This document shows, piece by piece, positions 8,615 to 31,303 of a DNA stretch of 64,000 nucleotides. How positions within the stretch are numbered: position 1 is the stretch's first letter; each line of letters starts with the position of its first letter. This stretch comes from a bacterium. GTDB lineage: Bacteria; Electryoneota; AABM5-125-24; Hatepunaeales; Hatepunaeaceae. A program made the translations under genes and the position numbers. The notes beneath the pieces were generated by a model. The model was not told the DNA's origin and ran no database searches. It saw only the letters and a program-made list of their open reading frames with translations. Where the stretch lies: assembly GCA_025774605.1 (NCBI GenBank), contig JALGVR010000001.1, positions 2,634 to 66,633 on the forward strand. Reading direction: 5' to 3'.

Positions 8615-8750
8615 TTTCACGCCCCTGTTTAGCAAGAATAATCTCATTTAATTCTTGACTTGATCTGATGAGATGTTTAACTTTCAATTAATTCCGGGCG
8701 GCTTCGTGAACTGCATCCAATCCGTTGTTTTACCCTTTTTGGGAGGATCT

Positions 8751-13205: not shown

Positions 13206-15320
13206 TTGGATCAATATCTTTTAATCACACTGATAGCTGGTGTACTGGCGTTGCTCTTCGCCCTTTTCAAGGCCGGACTGGTCAAACGTCAGGATGTTGG
13301 CGATGCCAGGATGGCGGAGATAGCGAAGAATATCCATGAGGGGGCGATGGCCTTTCTGGGTAAAGAATACTCGGTTCTCGTCATCTTCGTGATAGCAGTA
13401 GCGATCCTGCTGGCGATCGCCAACGCGGGCAACCCGGAATCACACGCGCTCGTCGCCCTGTCGTTCGTTCTCGGCGCGATCTGCAGCGGCCTGGCGGGTT
13501 TTTTCGGGATGACCGTCGCCACCAAAGCCAACGTCCGTACGACTCAGGCGGCGCGCACCGGATTATCCAAGGCGTTGTCCGTCGCGTTCTCCGGTGGAAC
13601 CGTAATGGGGATGTCGGTGGTCGGGCTGGCGGTATGCGGTCTGGTGATACTGTTTCTCGTTTATACCAGGCTGATGGGTTTTGACGCACATACGCACATC
13701 GGGCTTAAGAAGCTCCTGGCCACCATATCCGGTTTTTCTCTGGGCGCTTCATCAATCGCCCTGTTCGCCCGTGTCGGCGGCGGTATTTACACGAAAGCCG
13801 CTGACGTCGGCGCCGACCTGGTCGGGAAGGTGGAAGCCGGCATTCCGGAAGACGACCCGCGCAATCCCGCGGTTATCGCTGACAACGTCGGGGATAATGT
13901 CGGCGACGTCGCCGGTATGGGAGCCGATCTGTTCGAGTCATACGTCGGAGCGATCGTCGGTTCGATGGTCATCGGCGGCTCGAGCTGGTATGTGTTGTCT
14001 GCAGGTGCGGAGAAGGCGTTGATGCCGGTGATGCTGCCGCTTGTGCTGGCAGCGGCGGGGATCATCGTCTCCATAATCGGCACCTTCTTCGTTCGGTCGG
14101 GAGAGAAATCGAATCCACAGACCGCGCTGAACATCGGCACGTTCGGCGCCGGGATTTTGATGGTGATCGCTTCCTGGTTCATCATACATGCCTTTATCGA
14201 GAGGCCGGTGCGGGTCACCGATTTCTTCGGTGTTATGCACACCTATACGGCGACCGGCGTCTTTCTCGCCACGATCTACGGATTGCTCGCCGGAATTGCC
14301 ATCGGGCTGATCACCGAATATTTCACATCCGAAAGCCGCGGTCCTGCGCATGCTGTCGCCCGCGAGAGCCTGACCGGCGCGGCAACCAACATCATCGCGG
14401 GGTTGGCGACCGGCATGCGGTCCACAGCCCTTCCGCTGATAGTGCTCGGCGCCGCAATCATCCTGGCCTATCATTCAGCCGGTCTCTACGGGATCGCCAT
14501 CGCTGCAGTCGGAATGTTGTCTACAACCGGAATTCAGCTCGCCGTCGATGCCTATGGCCCGATTGCCGACAATGCCGGTGGGATAGCGGAGATGGCCGAG
14601 CTCGGCCCTGATATCCGCAGGCGAACGGATAAACTCGACGCGGTCGGAAACACAACTGCCGCGATCGGCAAGGGCTTCGCCATCGGGTCGGCCGCACTGA
14701 CCGCGCTGGCGCTGTTCTCGGCGTTCATGACTGTAGTGCAGATCAAGCATCCTGACGTCAGGATAGACGTTATGAATCCGAACGTGATGGCCGGTGTACT
14801 GGTCGGCGCCATGCTCCCGTTCCTGTTCAGTTCATTCGCCATGCGCGCTGTCGGGCGCGCGGCCGGGAAGATGATCGAAGAGGTGCGCCGCCAGTTCAAG
14901 GAAATACCCGGTTTGCTGGAGGGCAAGGAAGGCGTCAAGGCGGATCACAGCCGCTGTGTCACCATCGCCACCGCCGGCGCCATCAAGCAGATGGTTGCAC
15001 CGGGGTTGTTGGCTGTCCTGACACCGGTGGTGGTCGGCTTTGCATTCACCGACAAGTCGGTATTGGGTGGACTGCTTGTCGGCGTTACATCGTCCGGCGT
15101 GCTGATGGCGATCTTCATGTCAAACACCGGCGGCGTGTGGGACAACGCCAAAAAGCATATCGAAGGCGGAGCGTATGGCGGCAAGGGTTCCGATGCCCAT
15201 AAAGCCGCCGTGGTAGGCGACACGGTTGGCGATCCGTTCAAGGATACCGCAGGCCCATCGCTGAATATTCTCATCAAGTTAATGAGTGTCGTTTCGTTGG
15301 TTATTGCGCCCCTGTTGTGA
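13206..15320 (+). CDS. hppA: Membrane-bound proton/sodium-translocating pyrophosphatase (TTG start).
   Basis: 704 aa with about 16 [11 protein letters not shown] and [10 protein letters not shown] signature motifs of H+-PPase. Confidence 0.9.
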
Positions 15321-15423: not shown

Positions 15424-16656
15424 ATGGGTAAATTGATAAGACCCCACGGCTCCGACAATCTGATCACGCTCCTGTTGCAGGGTGAGGAACTGGCGGCAGA
15501 ACGGCGGAGAGCGGAAACGCTCCCCCAGGCGCGCATTACCTCCCGCGAGGTCGGTGATTTGATCATGATGGGCATCGGCGGATTCACGCCGCTGAAGGGA
15601 TTCATGGGTCACGACGATTGGAAGGGTGTCTGCGCGGAGATGAAGATGACCGACGGCACCTTCTGGCCGATACCGATCACCGTATCGGTCGACAAGGAAT
15701 TCGCTGATTCGATCAGGGAAGGCGACGAGATAACCCTCGTCAACGACGAAGACGGGGATCTCATGGCGACCATGAAAGTCGGCGATAAATATACGATCGA
15801 CAAATCATTCGAATGTAAACACGTTTTCACCACTGACGATCTTGAGCATCCCGGCGTCAAGATGGTGATGAGCCAGAAGGAGGTCAACCTCGGGGGTGAG
15901 GTCAAGGTTCTGTCGGAGAGCTATTTTCCAAAGGAGTTCGCCGGTATCTACCAGCGTCCGGCGGAAAGCCGCAGGATCTTCGAGGAGAAGGGCTGGCGGA
16001 CGATAGCCGCACTGCAGCTCCGCAACCCCATGCACCGTTCGCACGAATATCTGGCGAAGATCGCCATTGAAGTCTCGGACGGTCTGTACATTCACCAGTT
16101 GGTCGGCAAGCTGAAGCCGGGAGACATTCCGGCCGACGTTCGCGTGAAATGTATCAACACCCTGGTGGAGAATTATTTCAACAAGGAGCGGGTGGTCATG
16201 GGCGGCTATCCGCTCGACATGCGTTATGCCGGTCCGCGCGAAGCCTTGCTGCACGGCGTCTTCCGCCAGAACTTCGGCTGCACGCACATGATCATCGGAC
16301 GCGATCATGCCGGTGTCGGCGAATATTACGGCCCGTTCGACGCTCAGACCGCATACTACGACCTGTGGGAAGGCGCCCTGGAATGCAAGATGCTGCCGAT
16401 CGACTGGACGTTCTGGGACTACGGTCAGGGCGGCATGGCGTCGATGAAGACCTCACCGGATAAGAACAAGGACAAGCGGCTGTTCCTTTCGGGCACCAAG
16501 CTGCGCAAACTGCTCAGCGAAGGCAAGCTGGACGAGATTCCACCGGAGTTCAGTCGTCCGGAAGTCCTTACCATTCTCAAGGAGTACTACGCCGGGTTGA
16601 CCGAGAAGGTCGAGATCAAGATGCACGGCTACGCCACCGGTGAAGGAAAGAAATAG
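15424..16656 (+). CDS. sat: Sulfate adenylyltransferase (ATP sulfurylase), dissimilatory type.
   Basis: 410 aa. [12 protein letters not shown] and GRDHAGVG motifs. It lies 100 bp after hppA and just upstream of aprBA. Confidence 0.9.
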
Positions 16657-16710: not shown

Positions 16711-17151
16711 ATGCCAAGCTATGTAAATCCAGAAAAGTGCGATGGGTGCAAGGCGCTGGACAAGACCGCTTGCCAGTATATCTGCCCCAACGACTTGATG
16801 GTCCTGGACAAGGCGACCGAGAAGGCTTACAACCAGGATGTCGCCATGTGCTGGGAATGCTATAACTGCGTGAAGATATGCCCCGTGGATGCGATCGAAA
16901 TGCGCGGTTATGCTGACTTTGTGCCACTCGGTGCAACTGTCACACCGATGCGCGGTTCAGATGCCATTATGTGGACCGTGAAGTTTCGCAACGGGATGTT
17001 GAAACGGTTCAAGTTCCCGATCCGTACAACTCCTGAAGGTTCCGCGGTTCCTGACGGCGGTTGGGATACCGGGACGGATGATTTGGGCGATGCCACCCTG
17101 TTCACCGAACCGGGATCAATCGGGCTGCCTGAAGTTCCAACCCTGAAGTAG
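16711..17151 (+). CDS. aprB: Adenylylsulfate reductase beta subunit.
   Basis: The MPSYVNPEKCDGCKA N-terminus is characteristic of AprB. Two [4Fe-4S] Cys clusters. Confidence 0.9.
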   Translation: MPSYVNPEKCDGCKALDKTACQYICPNDLMVLDKATEKAYNQDVAMCWECYNCVKICPVDAIEMRGYADFVPLGATVTPMRGSDAIMWTVKFRNGMLKRFKFPIRTTPEGSAVPDGGWDTGTDDLGDATLFTEPGSIGLPEVPTLK

Positions 17152-17164
17152 AGGAGTCGTCACA

Positions 17165-19051
17165 ATGGCAAATTTTGAAACTGTTACAGTAAACACCGAT
17201 CTGCTGATTGTCGGCGGCGGCATGGCTGCCTGCGGCGCAGCGGTGGAAGCGGCGTACTGGGCCAAGAAGAACGGCCTGAACGCCGTTATCGTCGACAAGG
17301 CTGCCCTGGATCGTTCCGGCGCGGTGGCGATGGGGCTTTCGGCGATCAACCAGTACGTCGGTCTCAAAGATGGTGATAACACCCTGACCGACTATGTCAA
17401 TTACGTGCGCAACGACCTGATGGGTATCACACGTGAAGACCTGGTCGCCAGCATTGCCCGCCACGTCGACGGGACAGTTCACCTGTTCGAGAAATGGGGT
17501 CTCCCGATCTGGAAGGATGAGGACGGCAAGTACGTGCATGAAGGCCGCTGGCAGCTCATGATCAACGGCGAATCCTACAAGGTTGTCGTCGCCGAAGCAG
17601 CCAAGAATGCAATCGGGATCGACAACCTCTACGAGCGCGTGTTCATCGTCGGTCCGCTGATGGATGGCGACCGCGTTGCCGGCGCAGTCGGTTTCTCGGT
17701 TCGCGAGGAGAAGTTCTACGTGTTCAAGGCAAAGGCTGTCCTGGTTGCCATGGGCGGCGCCGTGCACGTCTTCAAGCCGCGTTCGGCCGGTGAAGGTCTC
17801 GGTCGCGCCTGGTATCCACCCTGGAACTCCGGCTCATCCGCCTACTTTACGCTGAAAGCCGGCGCCGAGATGACCTGCCAGGAGGTCCGGTTCATCCCGG
17901 TGCGCTTCAAGGACGCCTACGGCCCTGTCGGCGCCTGGTTCCTGCTGTTCAAATCCCGCGCCACCAATGGCTTCGGAGAAAACTACATGCAGACCAACGC
18001 CAGTGAGCTCGAGAAATGGGTTCCGTACGGCAAGGTTAAGCCTGTACCCGCCAACCTGCGCAACTGGCTCATGATGCTCGATGTGATGGACGGCAAGGGC
18101 CCCATCTACATGCGTACCGAGGAAGCCATCGCCAACATCGCCGAGCAGTACAAGGACGATCCGAAGGCTTACAAGAAGAAGATGAAGGAGCTCGAGTCCG
18201 AAGCCTGGGAAGATTTCCTTGACATGACCATCTCACAGGCTTTCCTCTGGGCGGCGACAAACGTTGCTCCCGAGGAGAGGTCTTCCGAGATCGCCGCCGC
18301 CGAGCCGTACTTCATCGGCTCACACTCCGGCGCTTCGGGAGCATGGGTCTCCGGACCTGAAGACCTTCAAACCGACGAGACCAGAGGTGAGTACTTCTGG
18401 GGATACGCTCACATGTCCACCGTCAAGGGCCTGTTCTGTGCCGGTGACGCATCAGGCGCATCATCTCACAAGTTCTCGTCAGGTTCTCACGCTGAGGGGC
18501 GCATCGCGGCAAAGGCGGCCGTCAAGTTCATCATTGACAACAACACAATGCCGAATGTCAGCGACGAGACGATCGAAGGGTTGAAGAAGGAGATACTTGC
18601 CCCGCTCGACCGCTTCGCCCAATTCAGCAAGAACACCACCGATCCGGACGTCAACCCGGATTACATCCGTCCCAAGATGTTCATGTTCAGACTGCAGAAG
18701 ATCATGGACGAGTACGCCGGTGGTGTGACTTCCCAGTTTATGACCTCCAAGGTCATGCTGGATAAGGGGCTTGAGCTGTTGGCTTTCCTCAAGGAAGACT
18801 CGGAAAAGCTGGCCGCCGAGAACCTTCATGAACTGATGCGCTGCTGGGAGAACATCCATCGCATGTGGCAGGCTGAAGCCCACGTCCGCACCATCCTCTT
18901 CCGCGAGGAGACCCGTTGGCCCGGTTACTACTTCCGTGCCGACTGTCCCGAGATGAAGGATGACTGGAAGGTCTTCGCCAACTGCCGGTGGGATCCCGCC
19001 AGCGGCGAATGGGAGATGAAGAAAAGACCGGTTTACCAGATATTTGACTAA
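17165..19051 (+). CDS. aprA: Adenylylsulfate reductase alpha subunit (FAD flavoprotein).
   Basis: 628 aa. DLLIVGGGMAACGAA FAD motif. VDKAALDRSGAVAMGLSAINQY is typical of AprA. Confidence 0.9.
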   Translation: MANFETVTVNTDLLIVGGGMAACGAAVEAAYWAKKNGLNAVIVDKAALDRSGAVAMGLSAINQYVGLKDGDNTLTDYVNYVRNDLMGITREDLVASIARHVDGTVHLFEKWGLPIWKDEDGKYVHEGRWQLMINGESYKVVVAEAAKNAIGIDNLYERVFIVGPLMDGDRVAGAVGFSVREEKFYVFKAKAVLVAMGGAVHVFKPRSAGEGLGRAWYPPWNSGSSAYFTLKAGAEMTCQEVRFIPVRFKDAYGPVGAWFLLFKSRATNGFGENYMQTNASELEKWVPYGKVKPVPANLRNWLMMLDVMDGKGPIYMRTEEAIANIAEQYKDDPKAYKKKMKELESEAWEDFLDMTISQAFLWAATNVAPEERSSEIAAAEPYFIGSHSGASGAWVSGPEDLQTDETRGEYFWGYAHMSTVKGLFCAGDASGASSHKFSSGSHAEGRIAAKAAVKFIIDNNTMPNVSDETIEGLKKEILAPLDRFAQFSKNTTDPDVNPDYIRPKMFMFRLQKIMDEYAGGVTSQFMTSKVMLDKGLELLAFLKEDSEKLAAENLHELMRCWENIHRMWQAEAHVRTILFREETRWPGYYFRADCPEMKDDWKVFANCRWDPASGEWEMKKRPVYQIFD

Positions 19052-19063
19052 TCGGTCGCCCGA

Positions 19064-19102
19064 ATTCGGAGGCTCCCCGAAGGGAGCCTCCGAATGTGAT
19101 TT
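19064..19102 (+). terminator. Strong hairpin downstream of aprA (13-bp perfect stem, GNRA-like loop cgaa). Probably a terminator or transcript-stabilising element.
   Basis: attcggaggctccc-cgaa-gggagcctccgaat. It has only a weak downstream T-tract. Confidence 0.5.
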
Positions 19103-19152: not shown

Positions 19153-19422
19153 ATGTTGAAGATAATCGAACCACCAGTATGTCTTCACTGTGGCGGGTTG
19201 ATGGACAAAATGGAGATGCCCGCCGAGGCGGGTTATCCGAGTTCATTCGTCTGGGTTTGTTTCAACGATGATTGCCCCTACTATGTTCGAGGATGGCAAT
19301 GGATGAAGGAGAAATATGAGGTTAAGTCATCATACCGGTATAAGATAAATCCTGTCACGGGCTTAGCCAGTCCTCTGCCTGTGTGGTCTGAAACCGCCAT
19401 GAAAGACCGCATCGTTAGCTGA
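19153..19422 (+). CDS. Small (89 aa) Cys4 zinc-ribbon-like protein of unknown function.
   Basis: CLHC...x22...CFNDDC arrangement. It sits between aprA and the qmo genes. Confidence 0.4.
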   Translation: MLKIIEPPVCLHCGGLMDKMEMPAEAGYPSSFVWVCFNDDCPYYVRGWQWMKEKYEVKSSYRYKINPVTGLASPLPVWSETAMKDRIVS

Positions 19423-19441: not shown

Positions 19442-20272
19442 ATGAAAGAGTTTGAAGATCTTAAGAAGAAAATACTGACTGAATATCCCCGTTTGAGCCC
19501 CAGGGATCGGTTCCGATTCGAGTGCGGTCCGGACCTCGAGTGCTTTAATGTTTGTTGTTCCGATGTGAATATCTTCCTGACGCCCTATGATGTGCTGATG
19601 ATGCGCAAAGCCCTGGATATGGACTCCACCCGCTTCCTCGCCGAATATACGATTGTTCCCTTCGACAAGAATCAGAAACTGCCCGTACCGCTGCTGAAGA
19701 TGCGCGATACCGAGCGGAAGGAATGCCGATTCGTGGATACCAGGAAGGGCTGCAAAATCTACGAGCACCGTCCCTGGCCCTGCCGCATATATCCGCTGGG
19801 CGCCGCGTCGCCCGGTGAGACCGAAGTTAACGCCGAGCCGTTTTATTTCCTGATCCAGGAGGGACACTGCAAGGGTCACGAACGCGCCAGGGAATGGACG
19901 GTGGATGAATGGCTCGAGGACCAGGGGATCAGCGAATATGCCGAGTTCGGTGAGCTGTTCAAGAAGGTCACGCTGCACCCGGCGTTCACGCGGGGAAGGG
20001 AGCTGGCGCCGCAACAGATCGATATGTACTGGACGGCGCTTTACGATCTCGATAAGTTCAGACGCTTCATCTTTGAAAGCAGTTTTCTCAAACGTTTCGA
20101 AATCACGGAGCCGAAACTCGACGAGCTGAAGGTCGACGATGTCTCGCTGCTTCGTTTCGGTTTCGATTGGATCAGGTTTGCCATGTTTGGAGAGAAACGG
20201 GTAAAAGTCAGACCGGACGCCGAGAAGTGGATAAAGGGCGAGGGGGTCAAACCGGGGGTTGCCAATGCCTGA
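19442..20272 (+). CDS. YkgJ/UPF0153-family Fe-S/Zn-binding protein (CxxCxxCC-type 'putative zinc- or iron-chelating domain').
   Basis: ECGPDLECFNVCC cluster. The downstream C..IY.HRPWPCRIYP signature is typical of YkgJ-like proteins. Its end overlaps the qmoC start by 14 bp. Confidence 0.55.
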   Translation: MKEFEDLKKKILTEYPRLSPRDRFRFECGPDLECFNVCCSDVNIFLTPYDVLMMRKALDMDSTRFLAEYTIVPFDKNQKLPVPLLKMRDTERKECRFVDTRKGCKIYEHRPWPCRIYPLGAASPGETEVNAEPFYFLIQEGHCKGHERAREWTVDEWLEDQGISEYAEFGELFKKVTLHPAFTRGRELAPQQIDMYWTALYDLDKFRRFIFESSFLKRFEITEPKLDELKVDDVSLLRFGFDWIRFAMFGEKRVKVRPDAEKWIKGEGVKPGVANA

Positions 20273-21434
20273 GGCGCTGATTGCCCGGCCGGACCGGGAT
20301 TTCATTCGCAGGGTCAAGGCCGCCGGCGGCGAATCGGTACAGAAGTGCTACCAGTGCGCGACCTGCTCGGTCGTCTGCGATCTGTCGCCGGTCGATTGTC
20401 CCTTCCCACGCAAGGAGATGATCTGGACGCAGTGGGGGATGGGCGATAAACTGATGACTGATCCGGACGTCTGGCTCTGTCACCAGTGCAACGACTGTTC
20501 GGTCAATTGTCCGAGGAATGCCAAGCCCAGCGAGGTGTTGGCGGCCATCCGCACGGTGGCTTTCGGTCACTTCGCCTTCCCCGGTTTCATGGGGAGGCTG
20601 CTCGCCAATCCATGGGGGTTGATCCCACTTTTGCTGCTGCCGATTATCCTCATCGGAGCGGTGATATGGCAGGAGACAGGCGGTAACCTGGCGCCGCTGT
20701 TTCATGCGTCGGTCGTGGATTTCAACCTCTTCATACCGCACGGCGTTTCCGATATGATGTTCATCATCGGTAACATTATCATCTTCACTTTTGCGGCTGT
20801 CGGACTGTTCCGATTCTGGCGGGGGATGCATAACTCCTGGGGCGTTCAGCCGAAGAGGGGTTTCATATCCGCGCTGATCTCGATCGTCCTTGAAATACTG
20901 CGGCACAACCGGTTCGGGAAGTGTACCGCCGGTCGTTATAGACAGACGGCTCATCTGCTGGTGCTCTTCGGTTTTATCGGGGCGGCGATCGCCACGGCCG
21001 GAGCGTTGGTCGAGATGATAGTCTTGCACGAGTTTCTCGGGCTCGAGGGGCACTATCCGCCCTTTCCGCTCTATCACCCGATCAAGATATTCGGCAACCT
21101 GGGCGGCTTTGCCATCCTCGTCGGACTGGCGATAATGATTGTCCAGCGGCTGACGAACCGGGAGAAGGTGGGTGTGGTCGGGTATTCAAACTGGCTGTTC
21201 ATCTGGATGGTCGGCCTGGTTACGCTCTCGGGCCTGCTGTGCCAGTTCATGCGGATCGCCGTGGTCCCTGAAGCGGCTTATCCCCTTTATTTTCTGCATC
21301 TCGTCACGGTCTTTTTCCTGCTCTGGTACGCGCCCTACAGCCAGTTCGGGCACATGTTCTACCGGACGCTGGCGATGATCTTTGCGCGGAGCGTGGGCAG
21401 GGAGGCGAGAGAACTAAAAAATAATAATTATTAA
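20259..21434 (+). CDS. qmoC: QmoC-like membrane subunit: an N-terminal HdrC-like di-[4Fe-4S] domain fused to an HdrE/NarI-like cytochrome b membrane domain.
   Basis: CYQCATCSVVCD and CHQCNDCSVNCP motifs are followed by about 6 TM helices. It is unusually placed upstream of qmoA. Confidence 0.7.
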   Translation: MPMPEALIARPDRDFIRRVKAAGGESVQKCYQCATCSVVCDLSPVDCPFPRKEMIWTQWGMGDKLMTDPDVWLCHQCNDCSVNCPRNAKPSEVLAAIRTVAFGHFAFPGFMGRLLANPWGLIPLLLLPIILIGAVIWQETGGNLAPLFHASVVDFNLFIPHGVSDMMFIIGNIIIFTFAAVGLFRFWRGMHNSWGVQPKRGFISALISIVLEILRHNRFGKCTAGRYRQTAHLLVLFGFIGAAIATAGALVEMIVLHEFLGLEGHYPPFPLYHPIKIFGNLGGFAILVGLAIMIVQRLTNREKVGVVGYSNWLFIWMVGLVTLSGLLCQFMRIAVVPEAAYPLYFLHLVTVFFLLWYAPYSQFGHMFYRTLAMIFARSVGREARELKNNNY

Positions 21435-21485
21435 ATTGGGAATTTAAATAATTTTGGAAACGATACATTCCATATTGGAGATGCT

Positions 21486-22730
21486 TTGAACACCGACCTT
21501 TTAGTGATCGGCGGAGGGATCGCCGGCATTACGGCTGCCGTCGAAGCGGCGGAAACCGGCAGGGAGGTCGTACTGGTGGAGAAGCAGCACCAACTCGGCG
21601 GACGCGTGCTGCAGATGCACAAGTACTTCCCCAAGCTGTGCCCACCGGTGTGCGGTCTCGAGATCAACTTCCGCCGCATCAGGCAGAATCCGAAGATCAA
21701 GGTTTTAACCGGCGCCAAACCGACCAGTATCGAAGGCGTTCCCGGCGATCTGACCGCGATCATCCACGTCGAACCGAGCTATGTAAAGGCTGATTTCACG
21801 AGCGGCAAAGGTGTTGAAAATGACTGTCCGGTGGAAATCGCCGATCGGTTCAATTTCGGCATGAACAGGACCAAGGCGTTCAGACTGCCGCACGAACTCG
21901 CCTACCCCTATCGGTATGTCATCGATGAGGAATCGGCTCACGACCCGGCGATGAAGCAATTTATCGAATCGTCCGGCATCGAGGGCGTTGACCTCGACAT
22001 GCAGCCCGAAGACGTCGAGGTCAAAGCCAAGGCGGTTATCTGGGCGACCGGCTGGGAACCCTACGACGCGAACAAGCTTGATCACCTCGCCTACGGCAGA
22101 CTGCCGAACGTCGTCACGAACATGGAGATGGAACGGATCGCCGCGGTCAACGGCCCCACGAAGGGCAAAATCCTCCGACCGTCCGATCAGCAGCCGATCA
22201 CCAGAGCCGCCTTCGTTCAGTGCGCCGGCTCACGTGACGAGAACCATCTGCCGTACTGCTCGGCGGTATGCTGCATGGCTTCACTGAAACAGAGCCGTTA
22301 CATCAGGGAGCAGTACCCGGACGCGGAGATCCACATTTTCTTTATCGACGCCCGCACTCCCGGTCGGTGGGAGGATTTTTACCAGGAAGTTCAGGACGAT
22401 GAGAAGACCGTCATCCACCGCGGCAAGGTGGCTCGCATCGAGGAAGCCGGGAACGGCATGGTGACGCTGACCGCCGAGAATACCTTGACGGGCAAGTTGG
22501 AACAGGTGAGCGTCGACATGGCGATCCTTGCCACAGGCATGGTTCCGACGGTCGCCGTGGACGCGCCACCGATCAAAATCAACGTGGATGAATTCGGTTT
22601 CATACAGAATAACGGGACTTCCGTTGTTGTCGGCGCCGGCGTAGCCACCGGCCCCAAGGACGTCGCCTCGACCAATGAGGAAGCGACCGGCGCGGTCGTG
22701 AGGGCGCTGCAGATGATGACGGGGAAATAG
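21486..22730 (+). CDS. qmoA: QmoA (HdrA-like flavoprotein).
   Basis: 414 aa. LVIGGGIAGITAA FAD motif. HdrA-family CAGSRD...YCS.VCC motif. Confidence 0.85.
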   Translation: MNTDLLVIGGGIAGITAAVEAAETGREVVLVEKQHQLGGRVLQMHKYFPKLCPPVCGLEINFRRIRQNPKIKVLTGAKPTSIEGVPGDLTAIIHVEPSYVKADFTSGKGVENDCPVEIADRFNFGMNRTKAFRLPHELAYPYRYVIDEESAHDPAMKQFIESSGIEGVDLDMQPEDVEVKAKAVIWATGWEPYDANKLDHLAYGRLPNVVTNMEMERIAAVNGPTKGKILRPSDQQPITRAAFVQCAGSRDENHLPYCSAVCCMASLKQSRYIREQYPDAEIHIFFIDARTPGRWEDFYQEVQDDEKTVIHRGKVARIEEAGNGMVTLTAENTLTGKLEQVSVDMAILATGMVPTVAVDAPPIKINVDEFGFIQNNGTSVVVGAGVATGPKDVASTNEEATGAVVRALQMMTGK

Positions 22731-22733
22731 AAC

Positions 22734-25001
22734 ATGGAAGCTAAAACAGGCGTATATATCTGTTCCGGCTGCGGCATCAAGGATTCTTGTAACGTTGAAG
22801 CCATCGCCAAGATGGTGGAAGACGAGCTCGATGTGGAGCTCTGCAAGGTTGATCCGCTGGTCTGCGGCGATGAATGTGTGGCGGGTATCAAAGCCGACAT
22901 CGAAGCCGCGGGGTTGGATCATGTGGTGATCGCCGGCTGTTCCGGCCGTTATTTTTCCGATCGATTCAAGTTCGGCGACAATGTGCTGATCGACCGGGTG
23001 GCTCTGCGTGAGTTCGTCGCCTGGACGAGCGATCCGCAGGCCGATATCGACGACATCGAAGAGGTTATACAGGAGCAGGCTGAAGACTACCTGCGCATGA
23101 GCGCAGCGCGGATGAAATACAGCGAAGCCCCCGTGCCGATGGATGTGGAGGAGACATCCAGGGATATCATGGTGGTCGGTGCGGGCGTGGCGGGGCTTAA
23201 CGCCGCGCTGGCCGCCGCTGATGCCGGTTACAAGGTTACACTTGTCGAAAAGGAAGCCGAGCTCGGCGGCTGGTCGAGGAAATTCAAGACGGTCATTCCC
23301 CAGGCCGCGCCCTATCGCGAACCTCAGGCTCCGCCTCACACCGAGCTCGTTAAAGCTGTGAACGATCACGAACTGATAAAGGTCCTTACTTCATCGACAG
23401 TGACCAGGACCAGCGGTCAGCCCGGTCAGTTCGACGTGACCATCCAGAACGGTTCGGGCGAAGAGAAACTTCGCATCGGCGCCATCGTCCAGGCGACCGG
23501 CTGGCTGCCTTACGATCCGACCAGGCTCGCGGACAAGTACGGTTACGGCAGGCTCCCCAACGTCATCACCAACGTCATGATGGAGGAGATGGCGGCGGCG
23601 GGCAGGATCGCCAGGCCGTCCGACGGCGCGGCGCCTAAGGCCGTGGCGATCATTCACTGCGCCGGATCGCGTGACAGGGAATTCCTGCCCTACTGTTCGG
23701 CGGTCTGCTGCCGGGTGGCCATGAAGCAGGCTCTGTATATCCGCGAGCAGATGCCGGATACCGATGTTTACCTGCTGTACAAGGACATCCGCAGCCCGGG
23801 CGTCTTTGAGCAGTTCTATGCCAGGGTTCAGGATGAGGAGGGCATCTACCTGACAAAGGGTGAGGTCGTCGAGGTTGTCGAAGACGGTAACGGCGGCGTT
23901 TCGGTGACCCTGGATGACACGCTGCTGGGTGAGAATATAACCGTTCAGGCGGATATGCTGGTGCTGGCGACCGGCATGGTTCCGACGACGCTTGTCGAAA
24001 CCGACGAGACGGACGGGGCGGAGACCGAAGAGAAACCCGCCGAAGAGTCCCCGGGTGACGGGGATGAGAAATCGAGGGCCGCCGGCGCTGAAACAGGCGC
24101 CAATATCCTGGCGCTGACCTACCGCCAGGGAACGGACCTGCCCACACTGAAATACGGATTTCCGGATTCTCATTTCATCTGTTTTCCCTACGAAACCAGA
24201 CGCACCGGCATCTATGCCGCCGGCGCCGTGCGCGCGCCGATGGATATGGGTATGGCGAGGAATGACGGACTGGGCGCGGCGCTGAAGGCGATCCAGGCGG
24301 TGGAAGCATTTCCGCTGGGGCGTGCGCTTCACCCGCGGTCCGGTGATATCAGCTTTCCGGAATTCTTCCTTCAACGCTGCACGCAATGCAAACGCTGTAC
24401 CGAGGAGTGTCCGTTCGGCAGCCTGGACGAGGACGACAAGGGCACACCGGAGCCGAACCTGCTGCGCTGCCGCCGCTGCGGCATCTGTATGGGCGCCTGC
24501 CCGGAGCGGATCATCTCGTTCAAGGACTACTCGCCGAATATGATCTCGCAGATGATCAAGGTCATTTCGATGCCCGAAGAGGACGACGAAAGACCGCGTT
24601 ACCTGGTGTTCATGTGCGAAAACGACGCGCTGCCGGCGTTTGACATCGCGGCCTGGCACAGGCACAAGATCTCTCCGTGGGTGCGCATCATTCCGGTGCG
24701 CTGCATCGGTTCGGTAAATACGGTGTTCATTGCCGACGCGCTGAACGGAGGCTTCGACGGCATCCTGCTGTTGGGTTGCAAGCGCGGTGACGATTATCAG
24801 TGTCACTTCGTGCGCGGCAGCGAACTCGCCAACACCAGGATGGAAAACGTCCAGGAGAAACTGCTGCAACTGTCGCTCGAAGAGGAGCGCGTCCAGATTC
24901 ATGAGGTCGAGCTGTCGGATTGGGATCGGATCCCGGAGATCATCAATGACTTCGTCGAGGAGATCAACGACATCGGGCCGAATCCGTTCAAGGATTTTTA
25001 G
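22734..25001 (+). CDS. qmoB: QmoB (HdrA-like flavoprotein with ferredoxin and a MvhD-like C-terminal domain).
   Basis: 755 aa. Two HdrA-like FAD halves, a di-cluster ferredoxin (CTQCKRCTEECP; CRRCGICMGACP), and a C-terminal MvhD-like domain. Confidence 0.85.
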   Translation: MEAKTGVYICSGCGIKDSCNVEAIAKMVEDELDVELCKVDPLVCGDECVAGIKADIEAAGLDHVVIAGCSGRYFSDRFKFGDNVLIDRVALREFVAWTSDPQADIDDIEEVIQEQAEDYLRMSAARMKYSEAPVPMDVEETSRDIMVVGAGVAGLNAALAAADAGYKVTLVEKEAELGGWSRKFKTVIPQAAPYREPQAPPHTELVKAVNDHELIKVLTSSTVTRTSGQPGQFDVTIQNGSGEEKLRIGAIVQATGWLPYDPTRLADKYGYGRLPNVITNVMMEEMAAAGRIARPSDGAAPKAVAIIHCAGSRDREFLPYCSAVCCRVAMKQALYIREQMPDTDVYLLYKDIRSPGVFEQFYARVQDEEGIYLTKGEVVEVVEDGNGGVSVTLDDTLLGENITVQADMLVLATGMVPTTLVETDETDGAETEEKPAEESPGDGDEKSRAAGAETGANILALTYRQGTDLPTLKYGFPDSHFICFPYETRRTGIYAAGAVRAPMDMGMARNDGLGAALKAIQAVEAFPLGRALHPRSGDISFPEFFLQRCTQCKRCTEECPFGSLDEDDKGTPEPNLLRCRRCGICMGACPERIISFKDYSPNMISQMIKVISMPEEDDERPRYLVFMCENDALPAFDIAAWHRHKISPWVRIIPVRCIGSVNTVFIADALNGGFDGILLLGCKRGDDYQCHFVRGSELANTRMENVQEKLLQLSLEEERVQIHEVELSDWDRIPEIINDFVEEINDIGPNPFKDF

Positions 25002-25046: not shown

Positions 25047-26273
25047 ATGGCGGACAAAACCAAAGCCTCGGGAAAACTCGACGAGCTGAAAAAGGGTCCG
25101 TATCCGAGCTTCGTGAAGGAGATCGAGGCCGCCGCGGAAACCAACAAGATGGCGCATGACCTGATCGGTCAGCTTGAGCTTTCCTACGATGAAAAACTTT
25201 GCCACTGGAAACACGGCGGCATTGTAGGTGTGATGGGGTACGGCGGAGGCGTTATCGGTCGTTACAGCGATGTTCCGGAGAAATTTCCCAACGTGTCACA
25301 TTTTCACACCTTGCGCGTCAATCAGCCCGCTGCCTGGTTTTACAAGACGGATGCGTTGCGGAAGATATGCGACATGTGGGAGAAGCGTGGGTCTTCAGTA
25401 TTGAACGTTCACGGCTCAACCGGCGATATCGTTCTGCTGGGCACCACGACACCGCAATTGGAGCCCGTCTTCAATGAACTCACATCGCTGGGATTCGATC
25501 TGGGGGGATCGGGATCGGTACTCAGAACCCCGTCCTGCTGCGTGGGACCGGCGCGCTGCGAATGGGCGATGTACGACACCCTGAAATACGCTTACGAAAT
25601 GACAATGCGCTATCAGGATGAGCTGCACAGGCCGTACTTCCCCTACAAGTTCAAGTTCAAGTTTGCCGGCTGCCCCAATGACTGCGTGGCCTCGGTGGCG
25701 CGCGCCGACATGTCGTTCATCGGCACGTGGAAGGACGACATTCAGATCGACCAGGACAAGGTTCGCTGGTATGCTGAAGAGCGGAAGGTCGATATCGAAG
25801 ACGTGGTTGTGGAGCGCTGCCCGACCAAATGCATGGCTTGGGACGGCAAGGAGCTCTTCATCGACAACCGCAACTGCGCCAGGTGCATGCACTGCATCAA
25901 CGTCCTGCACCTCGCTCTCAAGCCCGGCAAGGACCGCGGCTGCACCATCATGCTCGGCGCGAAAGCCCCGATCCTTGAAGGCGCTCAGTTGTCGAGTGTC
26001 CTGGTGCCGTTCATGCGGATGGCGCCGCCTTATGGAGAGGACGAAGCCACCGCCGAAGACCTTCCGGAACTGATCGACAACATCTGGGAGCTGTGGGGCG
26101 AAGAGGGCAAGAACCGGGAACGTGTCGGCGAATTTATCCAGAGGATAGGCATGGGCAACTTCCTGGACGCCATCGGTCTCGAACCGCAGGCCGAGATGGT
26201 TGCGCATCCCCGCACAAACCCGTACGTCTTCTACGACCTGGGTAAGGATGAAGAAGAGGAAGAGGATGAGTAA
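25047..26273 (+). CDS. dsrA: Dissimilatory sulfite reductase alpha subunit.
   Basis: Collinear with Desulfovibrio DsrA ([27 protein letters not shown]; [19 protein letters not shown]; [11 protein letters not shown]). Confidence 0.9.
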
Positions 26274-26352: not shown

Positions 26353-27435
26353 ATGACAGCAGAACCAGCTGAAAGGTTGACTGATATAGGTCCACCGCAT
26401 TATGAGAGATTCCTGCCGCCGGTGGTGAAGGCAAACTATGGCAAGTGGGTGAGCCATGAAATCCTTCAACCGGGCGTACTGGTTCATACTGCGGAGTCCG
26501 GTGACAAGATCTATTCGATCAGGGCGGCAACCGCGCGCTTGATATCGGTGCCCAAGATACGTCAATTCTGTGATATTGCGGATAAATACTGCGACGGGCA
26601 CATTCGCTGGACGAGCCGCAACAACGTGGAATTTCTGACCACCAAGAAGGAGAATGTAGAACCCATCAAGCAGGCGGTTGAAGCGCTGGGTCATCCGGTG
26701 GGCGGCACCGGCAACAGTATAACCAACATCGTTCATACCCAGGGATGGGTTCATTGTCACTCGGCCGCCACCGATGCCTCCGGCATAGTCAAGGCGGTAA
26801 TGGATGAACTGATGGACGAATTCACCAACATGCGCCTGCCCGGCAAACTCCGCATCGCGCTGGCTTGCTGCCTTAACATGTGCGGCGCGGTTCACTGCTC
26901 GGACATCGCCATCCTTGGCATCCACCGCCGTCCGCCGACCATCGATCACGATCGGCTGCGCAAGATGTGCGAGATCCCGAACACCGTGGCAGCATGTCCG
27001 ACGGCGGCGGTCCGTCCGGTGACCATTGACGGCAACCCGTCGGTCGAGGTTATCGAAGAGCAGTGCATGTTCTGCGCCAACTGCTTCACGGTCTGTCCCT
27101 CCATGCCGCTCAACGATCCCGAATATGACGGCGTCTCAATCTGGGTCGGCGGCAAGGTGTCCAACGCGAGGCATGAGCCGACGTTCTCGAAGCTGGCGGT
27201 GCCATACATTCCCAACAATCCGCCGCGCTGGCCCGAAGTGGTCAGCGCCGTAAAGAACCTCGTCACCATCTGGACTGACAACGCCAGACCGTATGAACGG
27301 ATGGGCGAATGGATCGAACGGATCGGATGGCCGCGCTTCTTCGAGATGGCTGGAATTGACTTCCAGAAGGAACATATTGATGACTTCAAGCATGCAGTAA
27401 CAACCTACAAGACGTCTGCACACTTGAGGTTCTAA
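26353..27435 (+). CDS. dsrB: Dissimilatory sulfite reductase beta subunit.
   Basis: 360 aa. Siroheme/[4Fe-4S] Cys motifs ([20 protein letters not shown]). Follows dsrA. Confidence 0.9.
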
Positions 27436-27454: not shown

Positions 27455-27721
27455 ATGGCTGATATGGTACCAGTCGAAGAGATTGCCGATGCTATGTTCA
27501 AGATGATTAAGGACGCTGCCGGCAAGAAGCAGTACAAATCAATGGATCTGCAGAAGGCGATGAAGGAGCTCTATCCGGGTCGAGTGGATAAACAGCTCTG
27601 CAAGGCGGCGATCAAGCAGCTTATCAATTCAGGACGCTGCATTTACACCTATTTCGGAGGCAGCTACATCGAGCTTCCTCACGTCGAAGGTGCGGCGAAT
27701 CCTGAACAGACGGAAACGTAG
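27455..27721 (+). CDS. dsrD: DsrD (small winged-helix protein, a marker of reductive-type Dsr).
   Basis: 88 aa. The position after dsrB and the C-terminal pattern (INSGRCIYTYFGGSYIEL) resemble Desulfovibrio DsrD. Confidence 0.7.
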   Translation: MADMVPVEEIADAMFKMIKDAAGKKQYKSMDLQKAMKELYPGRVDKQLCKAAIKQLINSGRCIYTYFGGSYIELPHVEGAANPEQTET

Positions 27722-29107
27722 TTGAACCCACCCCGGCTGCTCATAGCCGGATGCGGTGGAGACAGCGGAAAGACCTTGGTGACGCTGGGTCTGATCCGGA
27801 CCTGGCGTCACAAGGACATTAAAATAGTCCCTTTCAAGAAGGGACCCGATTATATCGATCCTGCCTGGCTTACCCTGGCATCCGGTGTTGAAACCCATAA
27901 TCTCGACACCTGGATGATGGGGCGGGAAGGAGTATTGCGCTCTTTTACACGATATTCGCGCCCGGATGCGTTGAACCTGATCGAGGGCAACCGCGGGCTG
28001 CACGACGGCGGGGACGCCCGGGGAACGCACTCCTCGGCGGTCATCGCCAGACTGCTGAAGACGCCGGTTGTCCTGGTTCTGCCCGTGAACAAGGTTACCC
28101 GAACGGCGGCGGCGTTTGTCCTGGGGGTTAAGCTTCTCGACGAAAATGTCCGTATCGCCGGTGTTGTTCTGAATCTTGTCGGCGGCGAACGGCATGAAGC
28201 CGTGGTCAGGAGGGCTGTTGAGGATGAGACCGGTGTGCCGGTGCTGGGGGCGGTGCCGCGCCGCAGGCGTGAGATCCTGCCCGACCGGCACCTGGGGCTG
28301 GTGACGCCGTCCGAACACGCGCAGGCCGACCAGGCGATCGAGGTCGCCTGCAGTATGGTTCGCGATACAATCGACACCGATCGGTTGCTGCGGATAGCCC
28401 ACGATACGGATGATTTGACCGGCACGGTCTCGGCTGAACCGGTGCACGAGATACACGACCGCAACATCAGGATCGGTTATTTCGCCGGTTCGGCGTTTAC
28501 CTTTTACTATCCCGAGAACCTGGAGGACTTGAAAGCCTCCGGGAGCTCGCTGGTGAAAATCAATCCGCTTGAAGCCCCGGCAATGCCTGAAATCGACGCT
28601 CTTTATATCGGCGGCGGGTTTCCTGAAACGCACGCCGCTTCGTTGAGCGGAAATCAACGGTTTATGCAAAGCGTGGCTGAGGCGGCGGCACGGGGACTGC
28701 CGGTCTGGGCCGAATGCGGTGGCTTGATGTTTCTGGCGCGGCGGCTTGAGTGGCGGGGGAGGAGCTACCCGATGGCCGGTGTTCTGCCGGTTGATGTCAA
28801 GGTTCAAGAACGTCCCCAGGGGCACGGCTACCAGGAGATCGAGGTCGACGCCGACAATCCGTTCCTCAGGATCGGAACACGTATACGCGGTCATGAGTTT
28901 CACTATTCGCGGGTGATTTCTCATGCTGAACCGCCGACCGTGTTCCGGGTGCGGCGGGGAACCGGGATCGGCGGCAATCGCGATGGTATCAGGATAAATA
29001 ACACACTCGCTTCGTATCTGCATGTGCATTCGTCTGCTGCACCGGAATGGTGTGATGGAATGATAAAAGCGGCAATGAATTACAACGTATCACATTTTCA
29101 GAAATAG
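27722..29107 (+). CDS. dsrN: Siroheme amidase DsrN (cobyrinic acid a,c-diamide synthase homolog). TTG start.
   Basis: CbiA-family P-loop (GCGGDSGKT). A C-terminal glutamine amidotransferase domain with the catalytic Cys (WAECGGLMFL). Confidence 0.8.
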   Translation: MNPPRLLIAGCGGDSGKTLVTLGLIRTWRHKDIKIVPFKKGPDYIDPAWLTLASGVETHNLDTWMMGREGVLRSFTRYSRPDALNLIEGNRGLHDGGDARGTHSSAVIARLLKTPVVLVLPVNKVTRTAAAFVLGVKLLDENVRIAGVVLNLVGGERHEAVVRRAVEDETGVPVLGAVPRRRREILPDRHLGLVTPSEHAQADQAIEVACSMVRDTIDTDRLLRIAHDTDDLTGTVSAEPVHEIHDRNIRIGYFAGSAFTFYYPENLEDLKASGSSLVKINPLEAPAMPEIDALYIGGGFPETHAASLSGNQRFMQSVAEAAARGLPVWAECGGLMFLARRLEWRGRSYPMAGVLPVDVKVQERPQGHGYQEIEVDADNPFLRIGTRIRGHEFHYSRVISHAEPPTVFRVRRGTGIGGNRDGIRINNTLASYLHVHSSAAPEWCDGMIKAAMNYNVSHFQK

Positions 29108-29164: not shown

Positions 29165-30862
29165 ATGGCTTTAGTAAAGAAGAAGAAGAAACTCACCATA
29201 AAAAGTGTCGGCGCTTCCGGCGCTTCCGGAGTGGAACACAGCCCGCGCCGGCCCTATCAGATCGAGAAACTTGCACCGTGTATGGGCGGCTGCCCGCAGG
29301 GGACGGATATCCGCGGTTTCCTGATGAAGATCGCCCAGGCGGAGAAATACGGACAACCGCAGGAGGAAGCCTTCAGGGAGGCCTGGGAAATACTCACTGC
29401 AACCAACCCGCTTCCGGCGATCTGCGGTCGCGTCTGTCCCCACCCGTGCGAGGACGGCTGCAACCGCAAGGAGAAGGACGGCGCGCTGGCGATAAACAAC
29501 GTCGAACGTTTCCTGGGCGACTGGGGGATCAAGCAGGAACTGAAGTTGAAAAAATCGACCGACGAATCCTATCCCGAGAAGGTCGCCATCATCGGCGCCG
29601 GACCGGCCGGTCTTTCGGCCGCCTATCATCTGGCGAAGCGCGGCTACGGGGTCACGATCTTCGAGTCGTTCCCCAAGGTCGGCGGAATGCTGCGTTACGG
29701 CATTCCCCGGTACCGGCTGCCGCGCGGGATCATAGACGCGGAAGCGCAGAAGATATTCGATATGGGCGTGGAGATTAAAACCAACGTCACCGTCGGCAAA
29801 GATATACCCTACGAGAAGTTGCAGCAGGACTTTGACGCCGTATTCGTCGGTATCGGCGCCCATGGCGGCAAGAAGCTCCACGCACCCGGTGAAGATGCGC
29901 CGAACGTTTACAGCGGAGTCGAATACCTTCGCCTGGTGAACAGCGGGAAGCCACCGGAGGTTGGAGATAAGGTGGTCGTCGTCGGCGGCGGTGATACGGC
30001 GATCGACGCCGCACGGGTCGCCCTGAGGCTCGGCGCCAAGGTCACCCTGCTCTATCGCCGCACGCGCAACGAGATGCCGGCCATCGAGGAGGAGATCGTT
30101 GGCGCCGAAGAGGAGAACATCGAGTTTCACTTCCTTGCCGCCCCGATTGAGATTATCCAGAAGGATGGTTTGGCTGTCGAAATGCGCTGCCAGAACATGG
30201 AGCTCGGCGAACCGGATGAATCCGGCAGACGCCGCCCGGTGCCGATCGAGGGAGATGAATTCACCATTCCTGTCACCGCGGTCATCTCGGCGATCTCCCA
30301 GGAGCCTGACTGGGGCGGATTGGATCACCTGCACGAGGGCAGGGACTGGGTCAAGGTGGACGAATACGGTCAGACCAAATACGAAGGGACATACGCCGGC
30401 GGCGATGTCCTGGATCTGGGACTGGTGACGATTGCAATCTATCAGGGTCGCCGAGCCGCCGACACGATTCATAATCGGTTCCGCGGGATTGAACTGAAGC
30501 CGGAGGAGATGAAGAAGGTTATCAGCGCCGACAAGCTTCTGCTCGACTGGTACGAGAACGCCCAACGTCATGAGGCGACGAAGATCCCCCCCGATGAGCG
30601 GTTCAAGGATCCGTGGTCGGAGATAACAGAAACGCTGCCTGACAGCGACATTATCGCTGAAGCCAGACGCTGTATGAGCTGCGGTATATGCTTCGACTGC
30701 GGCAATTGCTGGAGCTACTGCGGCGAGAACGTGGTTGTCAAACCGCTCGTACCCGGCGATCCGTACAAGTTCAAACTCGAACTGTGCAACGGTTGCGATA
30801 AATGCGCTGAAAACTGCCCTTGCGGATACCTCGAGATGAAAGATCCAGCAAGTCTACCATAA
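29165..30862 (+). CDS. dsrL: DsrL-like NAD(P)H:acceptor oxidoreductase (GltD-like Fe-S flavoprotein with a C-terminal ferredoxin domain).
   Basis: GltD-type N-terminus (CMGGCPQG...CGRVCPHPCE). FAD and NAD Rossmann motifs (IIGAGPAGL; VVVVGGGDTA). C-terminal Cys clusters (CMSCGICFDCGNC; CNGCDKCAENCPC). Located between dsrN and dsrC. Confidence 0.7.
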   Translation: MALVKKKKKLTIKSVGASGASGVEHSPRRPYQIEKLAPCMGGCPQGTDIRGFLMKIAQAEKYGQPQEEAFREAWEILTATNPLPAICGRVCPHPCEDGCNRKEKDGALAINNVERFLGDWGIKQELKLKKSTDESYPEKVAIIGAGPAGLSAAYHLAKRGYGVTIFESFPKVGGMLRYGIPRYRLPRGIIDAEAQKIFDMGVEIKTNVTVGKDIPYEKLQQDFDAVFVGIGAHGGKKLHAPGEDAPNVYSGVEYLRLVNSGKPPEVGDKVVVVGGGDTAIDAARVALRLGAKVTLLYRRTRNEMPAIEEEIVGAEEENIEFHFLAAPIEIIQKDGLAVEMRCQNMELGEPDESGRRRPVPIEGDEFTIPVTAVISAISQEPDWGGLDHLHEGRDWVKVDEYGQTKYEGTYAGGDVLDLGLVTIAIYQGRRAADTIHNRFRGIELKPEEMKKVISADKLLLDWYENAQRHEATKIPPDERFKDPWSEITETLPDSDIIAEARRCMSCGICFDCGNCWSYCGENVVVKPLVPGDPYKFKLELCNGCDKCAENCPCGYLEMKDPASLP

Positions 30863-30890: not shown

Positions 30891-31205
30891 ATGATCTTCG
30901 AATGGGAAGATATCAAAATCGAAGTTGATGAAGACGGTTTTATGCAGGAACCGGATCAGTGGAACGAACGCGTTGCGCTGGCTCTGGCGAGCACCGAGGG
31001 TGTTTCCGAGCTGACCGATGAGCATTGGAAGCTCGTCAACTACCTTCGTGAGTATTACCAGAAATTCGGCATTGCGCCGATGATTCGCAAGCTTTGCAAG
31101 GAAACCGGGTTTCCACTGAAAAAGGTCTACGAACTGTTTCCGTCAGGACCGGCAAAGGGCGCCTGCAAGGTCGCAGGTCTCGCCAAACCGACCGGTTGTG
31201 TCTGA
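30891..31205 (+). CDS. dsrC: DsrC (TusE/DsrC family) with the two conserved C-terminal cysteines.
   Basis: 104 aa. The C-terminus ...KGACKVAGLAKPTGCV has CysA at the penultimate position and CysB 11 residues upstream. Confidence 0.9.
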   Translation: MIFEWEDIKIEVDEDGFMQEPDQWNERVALALASTEGVSELTDEHWKLVNYLREYYQKFGIAPMIRKLCKETGFPLKKVYELFPSGPAKGACKVAGLAKPTGCV

Positions 31206-31218
31206 TCGGTTTATAAAT

Positions 31219-31260
31219 ATGCGGGATTTTCGAGGTGCTTAAGCCTTGAAAATCCCGCAT
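31219..31260 (+). terminator. 13-bp perfect-stem hairpin immediately after dsrC. Possibly a terminator or mRNA-stabilising stem-loop.
   Basis: atgcgggattttc-[16 nt loop]-gaaaatcccgcat. No T-tract follows. Confidence 0.4.
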
Positions 31261-31303
31261 GATATATGCGTCATCTCTATTCCATTTGGTTGTAATACCG
31301 AGT

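Follow-up and report, generated by a model that had tools for sequence, protein, structure and literature searches.

We analyzed a window of 64,000 nucleotides (the whole stretch of DNA considered here: positions 2,634 to 66,633, forward strand, of contig JALGVR010000001.1, GenBank assembly GCA_025774605.1, from a bacterium of the GTDB lineage Electryoneota; AABM5-125-24; Hatepunaeales; Hatepunaeaceae). It carries the three genes of a Qmo complex in the order qmoC-qmoA-qmoB (C-A-B) next to the genes of adenosine 5'-phosphosulfate (APS) reductase, aprBA. We conclude, with a probability of about 0.85, that these genes encode a complete and ordinary QmoABC and that C-A-B is how they are normally laid out in a Calditrichota-like branch of the Fibrobacteres-Chlorobi-Bacteroidetes (FCB) group, the branch from which the window comes. 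The three genes are:

20265-21434, + strand: qmoC, membrane subunit of 389 residues, matching NF038018 (alternative TTG start at 20259)
21486-22730, + strand: qmoA, HdrA-like flavoprotein of 414 residues, with matches to HdrA models and FAD-binding Pfam families
22734-25001, + strand: qmoB, HdrA-like flavoprotein of 755 residues, with matches to PF07992, Fer4 and PF02662 (FlpD)

The sequence-only reading of this DNA had placed a QmoC gene ahead of two genes for HdrA-like subunits, and indeed three consecutive open reading frames (ORFs) on the + strand were recovered there. The gaps are short, with 51 nucleotides between qmoC and qmoA, 3 between qmoA and qmoB and 45 between qmoB and dsrA. Linkage to aprBA is close as well, since sat-aprBA ends 1.2 kb upstream of the qmo genes on the same strand.

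The first gene is a true qmoC. Its product matched the NCBIfam equivalog model NF038018 over the full profile (1-360 of 360) with an E-value of 6e-117 and 391 bits, above the curated cutoff of 300. In an alignment with 13 homologues the cysteines of two CxxCxxCxxxCP motifs (Cys 28/31/34/38 and 72/75/78/82) were invariant, as were His 214, 230, 345 and 363. A hydropathy scan predicted six membrane helices, all beyond residue 115, and residues 9-106 matched HdrC chains in the Protein Data Bank (PDB). By these sequence features QmoC is a genuine fusion of an HdrC-like domain with motifs for two [4Fe-4S] clusters and an HdrE/NarI-like membrane domain with histidine ligands for two b hemes. Motifs, histidines, helices and the HdrC match together confirm the domain order proposed earlier, a di-cluster ferredoxin followed by a cytochrome b. 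No Qmo chain was among the PDB sequence matches of QmoC and QmoB.

The second gene encodes what the family definition asks of QmoA, an HdrA-like flavin adenine dinucleotide (FAD) protein that has a mass near 45 kDa and lacks an MvhD domain. It aligned to HdrA models over residues 2-412, carried its FAD-binding Pfam matches in the N-terminal part and was 51% identical to the aprBA-adjacent qmoA of an Archaeoglobus metagenome-assembled genome (MAG; locus L076). Its start is a TTG with GGAG 5 nucleotides upstream. The product of the third gene has the architecture expected of QmoB, in which an HdrA-like FAD-binding part is joined to a di-cluster ferredoxin and, at the C-terminus, to an MvhD-like domain (PF07992; Fer4 di-cluster at 541-595; PF02662 FlpD/MvhD at 624-748), and it matched HdrA and MvhD chains in the PDB. 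Judged by these sequence matches, the second and third genes fit the family definitions of QmoA and QmoB.

The three subunits agree with those of model QmoABC systems in domain make-up and size (414, 755 and 389 residues), and the linkage to sat-aprBA is shared as well. As the earlier reading had stated, the described aprBA-qmoABC loci have qmoC last; this holds for Desulfovibrio, Chlorobaculum, Archaeoglobus and Thermodesulfovibrio (PMC3333476, PMC5165239). In contrast, the window has C-A-B instead of A-B-C, and two conserved hypothetical genes, here called s89 and ykg, stand between aprA and the qmo genes. Its QmoC also belongs to an FCB-type clade separate from the QmoC of Nitrospirota and Archaeoglobus, to which it is only 39-43% identical. 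The order qmoA-qmoB-qmoC is typical of described loci, is not functionally required and varies within the family; the window departs from it. A further variant is the QmoAB-HdrCB of Gram-positive sulfate reducers and some sulfur oxidizers, in which soluble HdrB and HdrC replace the membrane subunit QmoC. The window shares with it the HdrA-like QmoA and QmoB linked to aprBA, but has a full QmoC including the membrane domain.

We then compared qmo loci from public genomes. A QmoC-centered survey with one genome per GTDB species returned at least 575 relatives, and the 80 most similar loci were retained and annotated by tblastn with the window proteins. A second survey collected the closest relatives of the window QmoC by exact protein look-up. 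In these closest relatives QmoC identity to the window was 68% (L081), 65% (L083), 56% (L085, Calditrichaeota) and 53% (L084, Calditrichota), and all four had the layout (hppA)-sat-aprBA-small ORF-ykg-qmoC-qmoA-qmoB-dsrAB where the contig was long enough. The order ykg-qmoC-qmoA is shared by the metagenome loci L096, L097 and L098, so that all seven of the closest relatives whose contigs reach far enough have it; they are Calditrichota-like MAGs and metagenome contigs outside any bin. The earlier description of the order as non-canonical is therefore right when C-A-B is set against A-B-C, but the order is not unusual, since it is standard in its lineage.

Across the 80 loci of the first survey the A-B-C order, with qmoB directly upstream of qmoC, was most frequent (33 loci; Nitrospirota, 'Deltaproteobacteria' MAGs, Nitrospinota and an Archaeoglobus MAG). 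In about 22 loci no qmoAB lay within 10 kb of qmoC, which in most of them pointed away from sat-aprBA-s89-ykg; these loci came mainly from MAGs labelled Zixibacteria, Ignavibacteria or 'bacterium'. In the Zixibacteria-type loci qmoAB was sought near the lone qmoC and was not found within 10 kb on either side, so that these are genuinely split arrangements. A lone qmoC divergent from sat-aprBA-s89-ykg, again with qmoAB absent from the 10 kb on both sides, was seen in L003-L005, L007-L010, L016, L021, L028, L031, L032 and L035, a large group of MAGs of which most bear the label Zixibacteria, Ignavibacteriales or 'bacterium'. Another eight loci had ykg-qmoC without qmoAB next to it, four of them with dsrA directly after. 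C-A-B without an upstream ykg was found in three loci, from Ignavibacteria (L001), LCP-89 (L015) and Elusimicrobiota (L065) MAGs. With these and the closest relatives taken together, the condition that the earlier reading had named as refuting it, a common C-A-B order, is partly borne out. In two loci qmoBA and qmoC were divergent, and the remaining loci were interrupted by contig ends.

Of the 58 loci with both genes, 55 had qmoB directly after qmoA. The constant unit is therefore the qmoAB pair, and qmoC is the mobile gene. A neighbor-joining tree of QmoC grouped the window with L081, L083, L084 and L085 in one clade and placed all non-canonical arrangements within the FCB-type clade, apart from the A-B-C loci of Nitrospirota and Archaeoglobus. 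In the FCB-type clade qmoC is usually linked to sat-aprBA-s89-ykg, either following ykg or facing sat, and qmoA-qmoB travel as an inseparable pair that may be placed after qmoC, as in the window, before sat, or elsewhere. On this reading the gene order reflects operon history and leaves the parts unchanged.

Two published loci come close to this arrangement. Thiel et al. (2019) described for Ca. Thermonerobacter thiotrophicus (OPB56, Bacteroidetes/Ignavibacteria/Chlorobi group) the cluster sat-aprBA-hyp-hyp-qmoC followed by dsrAB-D-N-L-C (PMC6338057). The window likewise has aprA, two hypothetical genes, qmoC, dsrAB, an ORF at the dsrD position (a DsrD candidate), dsrN, dsrL and dsrC on one strand. 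It differs in that qmoAB, located elsewhere in the Ca. Thermonerobacter genome, lies between qmoC and dsrA, and in that dsrT-MK(J)OP is contiguous too. We found loci equivalent to the Ca. Thermonerobacter arrangement in L051, L063, L067 and L079; identity of the window proteins to their equivalents in Ignavibacteria-type and similarly arranged loci was 39-59% for s89 and 45-53% for Ykg. The second precedent is the order AprA-AprB-Sat-QmoB-QmoA-QmoC given for the LCP-89 MAG B3_LCP in Supplementary Table 1 of Neukirchen et al. (2023), where it is tabulated without discussion (PMC10504309). This MAG is our locus L015, and read on the other strand the tabulated order is qmoCAB-sat-aprBA. Both loci thus have C-A-B linked to sat-aprBA; in B3_LCP qmoCAB precede sat, whereas in the window they follow aprA-s89-ykg. 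Our literature search found no text discussing the C-A-B order as such. The order seen here is a small variation on a published arrangement and was largely anticipated in print. Since it is also typical of its lineage, it is in itself of minor interest. It does matter for annotation, because pipelines and synteny rules that expect aprBA-qmoABC will mis-score sulfate-cycling genomes of the FCB group.

By analogy with characterized Qmo complexes, QmoC would oxidize menaquinol in the membrane through two b hemes, and its two [4Fe-4S] clusters would pass the electrons to the soluble flavoproteins QmoA and QmoB. These would deliver electrons to AprBA, possibly together with a second, low-potential donor by confurcation, a possibility that has been raised for transfer from Qmo to Apr (PMC3333476). 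The complex would on this analogy be a standard one serving sulfate respiration, and nothing suggests that it is altered.

Several points weigh against our interpretation. Co-transcription, composition of the complex and direction of electron flow are all inferred from the sequence. The QmoC tree is a rough neighbor-joining tree without support values, and therefore no ancestral gene order can be claimed from it. The frequencies given above describe FCB-like and Nitrospirota-like QmoC and not all sulfate reducers, because the 80 loci are those most similar to the query among at least 575. Finally, the 88-residue ORF at the dsrD position (27455-27721) gave no match to the Pfam DsrD model, nor to a chain in the PDB, in which DsrD is represented. 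It is conserved after dsrB in the relatives with 53-65% identity, and it gave a weak winged-helix match only (TBPIP, E 0.003). Since this ORF is not recognized, the reductive direction of the pathway is not secured by that marker.

The genes upstream of qmoC, beginning with a pyrophosphatase gene, are arranged as follows:

13206-15320, + strand: hppA, membrane H+-pyrophosphatase (PF03030, E 4e-271; TTG start uncertain)
15424-16656, + strand: sat, ATP sulfurylase (PF01747 and PF14306)
16711-17151, + strand: aprB, APS reductase beta subunit (PF12139 APS-reductase_C and Fer4)
17165-19051, + strand: aprA, APS reductase alpha subunit (PF00890)
19064-19095, + strand: hairpin with a perfect 14-bp GC-rich stem
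19153-19422, + strand: s89, zinc-ribbon-like protein of 89 residues, first gene of the conserved hypothetical pair downstream of aprA
19442-20272, + strand: ykg, YkgJ-family cysteine-cluster protein of 276 residues (PF03692, CxxCxxCC)

The genes ykg and qmoC overlap, and the extent of the overlap depends on the start codon of qmoC. The stop codon of ykg is the TGA at 20270-20272. A start at TTG 20259 gives an overlap of 14 nucleotides, a start at the in-frame ATG 20265 one of 8 nucleotides (ATGCCTGA). From the sequence the ATG is the likelier start, because a GGGGGT at 20254-20259 precedes it at a suitable distance, because the resulting N-terminus aligns with those of homologues (MPEA.. versus MAEA..), and because gene callers chose it on four independent contigs with an identical Ykg gene and the same junction, and likewise in the relatives L081 and L083. 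Contigs with an identical Ykg gene come, for example, from the JGI samples 3300010330 and 3300022552. The overlap reported earlier thus exists, but its length of 14 nucleotides is true for the TTG start only and is probably 8. The same 8 nucleotides were found in L081 and L083 and a single nucleotide in L084, and the tblastn matches of ykg and qmoC overlap by about 4-5 nucleotides in L094, L096 and L097. More distant genomes mostly have spacers of 10-39 nucleotides, with four outliers of 62-242 nucleotides. As read from these junctions, the overlap is an operon compaction in one branch, confined to the nearest relatives. In the window its length of 8 nucleotides would allow translational coupling.

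More interesting than the gene order are the two conserved genes themselves, which are tied to APS reductase across phyla. The protein s89 reached the threshold of no Pfam or NCBIfam model (Ogr_Delta matched with an E-value of 0.057 only). Across 36 sequences it shows the conserved motif CxHC...CFNDxCxY..GWxxM..SYR..P..PxPVWS. Ykg has eight invariant cysteines and is probably a metal- or iron-sulfur-binding protein. Its AlphaFold2 model is confident (predicted local distance difference test score 87.8), and neither a sequence relative nor a structural relative of Ykg was found in the PDB. The pair follows aprA in the FCB group, in MAGs labelled 'Deltaproteobacteria', Polyangia and Planctomycetes and in some Nitrospirota (loci L003-L037, L091, L092 and L094-L172). 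In MAGs labelled Polyangia and Planctomycetes s89-ykg also precedes a canonical qmoABC. A literature search found nothing linking YkgJ, PF03692, UPF0153 or CxxCxxCC proteins to apr, qmo or sulfur metabolism. The pair itself was met in print only once, as 'two conserved hypothetical genes' (Thiel et al. 2019; PMC6338057).

These genes lead to the strongest alternative to a mere lineage-typical gene order. Here qmoC would belong functionally with aprBA-s89-ykg, with s89 and Ykg as extra subunits of an Apr-Qmo supercomplex, as its adaptor for electron transfer or as factors that help it mature, and the C-first order and the overlap would reflect a stoichiometric partnership of Ykg and QmoC. We regard this as unlikely. 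To weigh it, we used a Ykg-centered scan of metagenome contigs, which gave 80 loci, 79 besides the window's own. Where there was room, aprA lay upstream of s89-ykg in 43 of 44 loci and an s89-like ORF directly upstream of Ykg in 62 of 64, which speaks for a link of the pair to APS reductase. The eight invariant cysteines would suit such a role. Presence of the pair also tracks one AprA lineage. In most loci in which s89-ykg adjoins aprA, AprA is 74-84% identical to that of the window, and in the QmoC-centered loci the median identity was 76% with Ykg just after aprA and 54% without. Moreover, ykg and qmoC adjoin despite distant qmoAB in L018, L019, L026, L030, L037, L051, L063, L067 and L079, with spacers mostly between -8 and 39 nucleotides. 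Support also comes from Ramos et al. (2012), who could not demonstrate electron transfer from menaquinol to APS with QmoABC and AprAB alone and postulated a third partner; they also remarked that in model organisms no partner genes co-localize with sat-aprBA-qmoABC (PMC3333476).

However, the gene that follows ykg varies. In the 49 informative Ykg-centered loci it was qmoA in 20, with qmoC last, qmoC in 7 and neither in 22. What stays constant around ykg is aprA and s89 and not qmoC, so that the overlap says little for a specific partnership of Ykg and QmoC. In addition, L008, L025 and L029 have a close AprA but no s89 or ykg in the available sequence downstream of aprA, Archaeoglobus-type loci lack a copy of either gene within 10 kb, and in Nitrospirota, MAGs of the Thermodesulfovibrio order among them, all that is left is a distant Ykg downstream of hppA. 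We found no precedent for such a role, either structural or functional. We keep to the view that C-A-B is the ordinary layout of a complete QmoABC in this branch.

What s89 and Ykg do can be put forward only tentatively. It is possible, if doubtful, that they serve APS reduction as dedicated components within a single large AprBA lineage, which would span the FCB group, the 'Deltaproteobacteria', Polyangia and Planctomycetes MAGs and some Nitrospirota, and that they act as an iron-sulfur or zinc adaptor or as an assembly factor linking AprBA and Qmo. The genes s89 and ykg are reasonable candidates for a part in electron delivery to APS reductase. To see in them the 'third partner' missing from the in vitro work with QmoABC and AprAB is speculation. 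We also considered DVU0851, the hypothetical gene that ends the D. vulgaris apr-qmo operon and is co-transcribed with qmo, as an equivalent of s89 or Ykg. Like these it is uncharacterized and linked to qmo, but no homologues were reported outside Desulfovibrio (PMC3125180), whereas s89 and Ykg are widely distributed. DVU0851 was therefore rejected as an equivalent and is unrelated to the pair.

Downstream of qmoB the run of genes continues with a dsr cluster:

25047-26273, + strand: dsrA (TIGR02064)
26353-27435, + strand: dsrB (TIGR02066)
27455-27721, + strand: small ORF of 88 residues at the dsrD position
27722-29107, + strand: dsrN-like gene, amidase (cobB/DsrN-like match)
29165-30862, + strand: dsrL-like gene (GltD-like match)
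30891-31205, + strand: dsrC (PF04358 DsrC)
31259-31831, + strand: dsrT-like gene (RsbRD_N match)
31877-32869, + strand: dsrM (Nitrate_red_gam match)
32872-34488, + strand: dsrK (CCG and Fer4 matches)
34436-34876, + strand: dsrJ candidate of 146 residues, by its position between dsrK and dsrO
34807-35643, + strand: dsrO (Fer4_11 match)
35651-36805, + strand: dsrP (NrfD match)

This gene content bears on the possibility that the cluster runs oxidatively or in disproportionation, from sulfite through APS to sulfate, with Qmo reducing menaquinone. Both sat-aprBA-qmoABC and dsrMKJOP occur in sulfate reducers and sulfur oxidizers alike, a DsrL-like gene is present, and the ORF at the dsrD position escapes the DsrD model. 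For the related lineage Thiel et al. left the direction open, though they predicted a sulfate reducer (PMC6338057). Against an oxidative direction, a scan of the cluster genes from dsrC to dsrP showed none that resemble dsrEFH. The cluster does have a dsrT-like gene, and behind dsrB, at the place of dsrD, comes a small ORF with a winged-helix-like match; sat is linked to a gene for a membrane pyrophosphatase. These markers are only indicative, and on balance we consider an oxidative or disproportionating pathway quite improbable.

That the C-A-B order is an assembly artefact, or that one of the genes is defective, has a vanishingly small probability, since the ykg-qmoC junction recurs in independent samples and the qmoC-qmoA junction in L081, L083, L084, L085, L096, L097 and L098, a recurrence in independent assemblies that excludes misassembly, and since all three qmo ORFs are full length with intact cofactor motifs.

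The whole cluster reads PPase-sat-aprBA-hairpin-s89-ykg-qmoCAB-dsrAB-(D)-N-L-C-T-MK(J)OP, and the + strand between 13.2 and 36.8 kb is an unbroken run of genes (about 24 kb). It is opened by hppA, with which the co-linear genes for sulfate activation begin and which takes the same position in the relatives L082, L083 and L084. Scans of the whole window with Rfam and for tRNAs gave no matches. A promoter scan returned 14 candidates against a shuffle expectation of 9.5 +/- 2.6, which is not clearly above chance; we therefore claim no promoter.

The hairpin at 19064-19095 begins 12 nucleotides after the aprA stop codon, has a fold z of -4.5 and was the top terminator-like match in the scan. Hairpins of 11-16 bp with a different sequence occupy the same position in L082 (about 6335-6375), L083 (about 6805-6845), L084 (about 6707-6743) and L085 (about 6514-6551), with z between -3.7 and -6.2. 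The element is thus conserved in position but not in sequence in five genomes, and a U-rich tract follows it in only some of them. It is probably a partial terminator, perhaps an attenuator, or a stabilizer of the mRNA 3' end that separates a highly expressed sat-aprBA from s89-ykg-qmoCAB. The genes s89-ykg-qmoCAB would then form a sub-unit that is probably read through from upstream or restarted after the strong post-aprA hairpin.

Some further observations concern the surroundings of the cluster. The dsrJ candidate at 34436-34876 overlaps both dsrK and dsrO, has no significant Pfam match and only faint cytochrome c-like ones, and its start is uncertain. Directly after dsrP, at 36951-38633, lies a gene for a 560-residue pyridine-nucleotide-disulfide oxidoreductase with a C-terminal rhodanese domain (coenzyme A-disulfide-reductase-like), which may have a role in sulfur transfer. 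It is followed by hemA, a siroheme synthase-like gene and a uroporphyrinogen methyltransferase/synthase fusion, so that siroheme-synthesis genes occupy 38.7-42.5 kb after the dsr genes. Taken with these, positions 13206-42460 form an unusually compact one-strand sulfate-reduction 'island' of about 29 kb with hppA, sat, aprBA, qmoCAB, dsrAB(D)NLC-T-MK(J)OP and the siroheme genes. The window thereby holds sulfate activation, APS reduction, sulfite reduction and siroheme synthesis in one complete set and offers a convenient reference locus for an uncultured lineage. Upstream of hppA, at 7766-12371, we noted genes for a TerC-family membrane protein and for a 1232-residue protein with a type IX secretion sorting domain. 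L082, L083 and L084 have a TerC protein or a protein with such a secretion tail at this place too, as would fit an origin in the FCB group.

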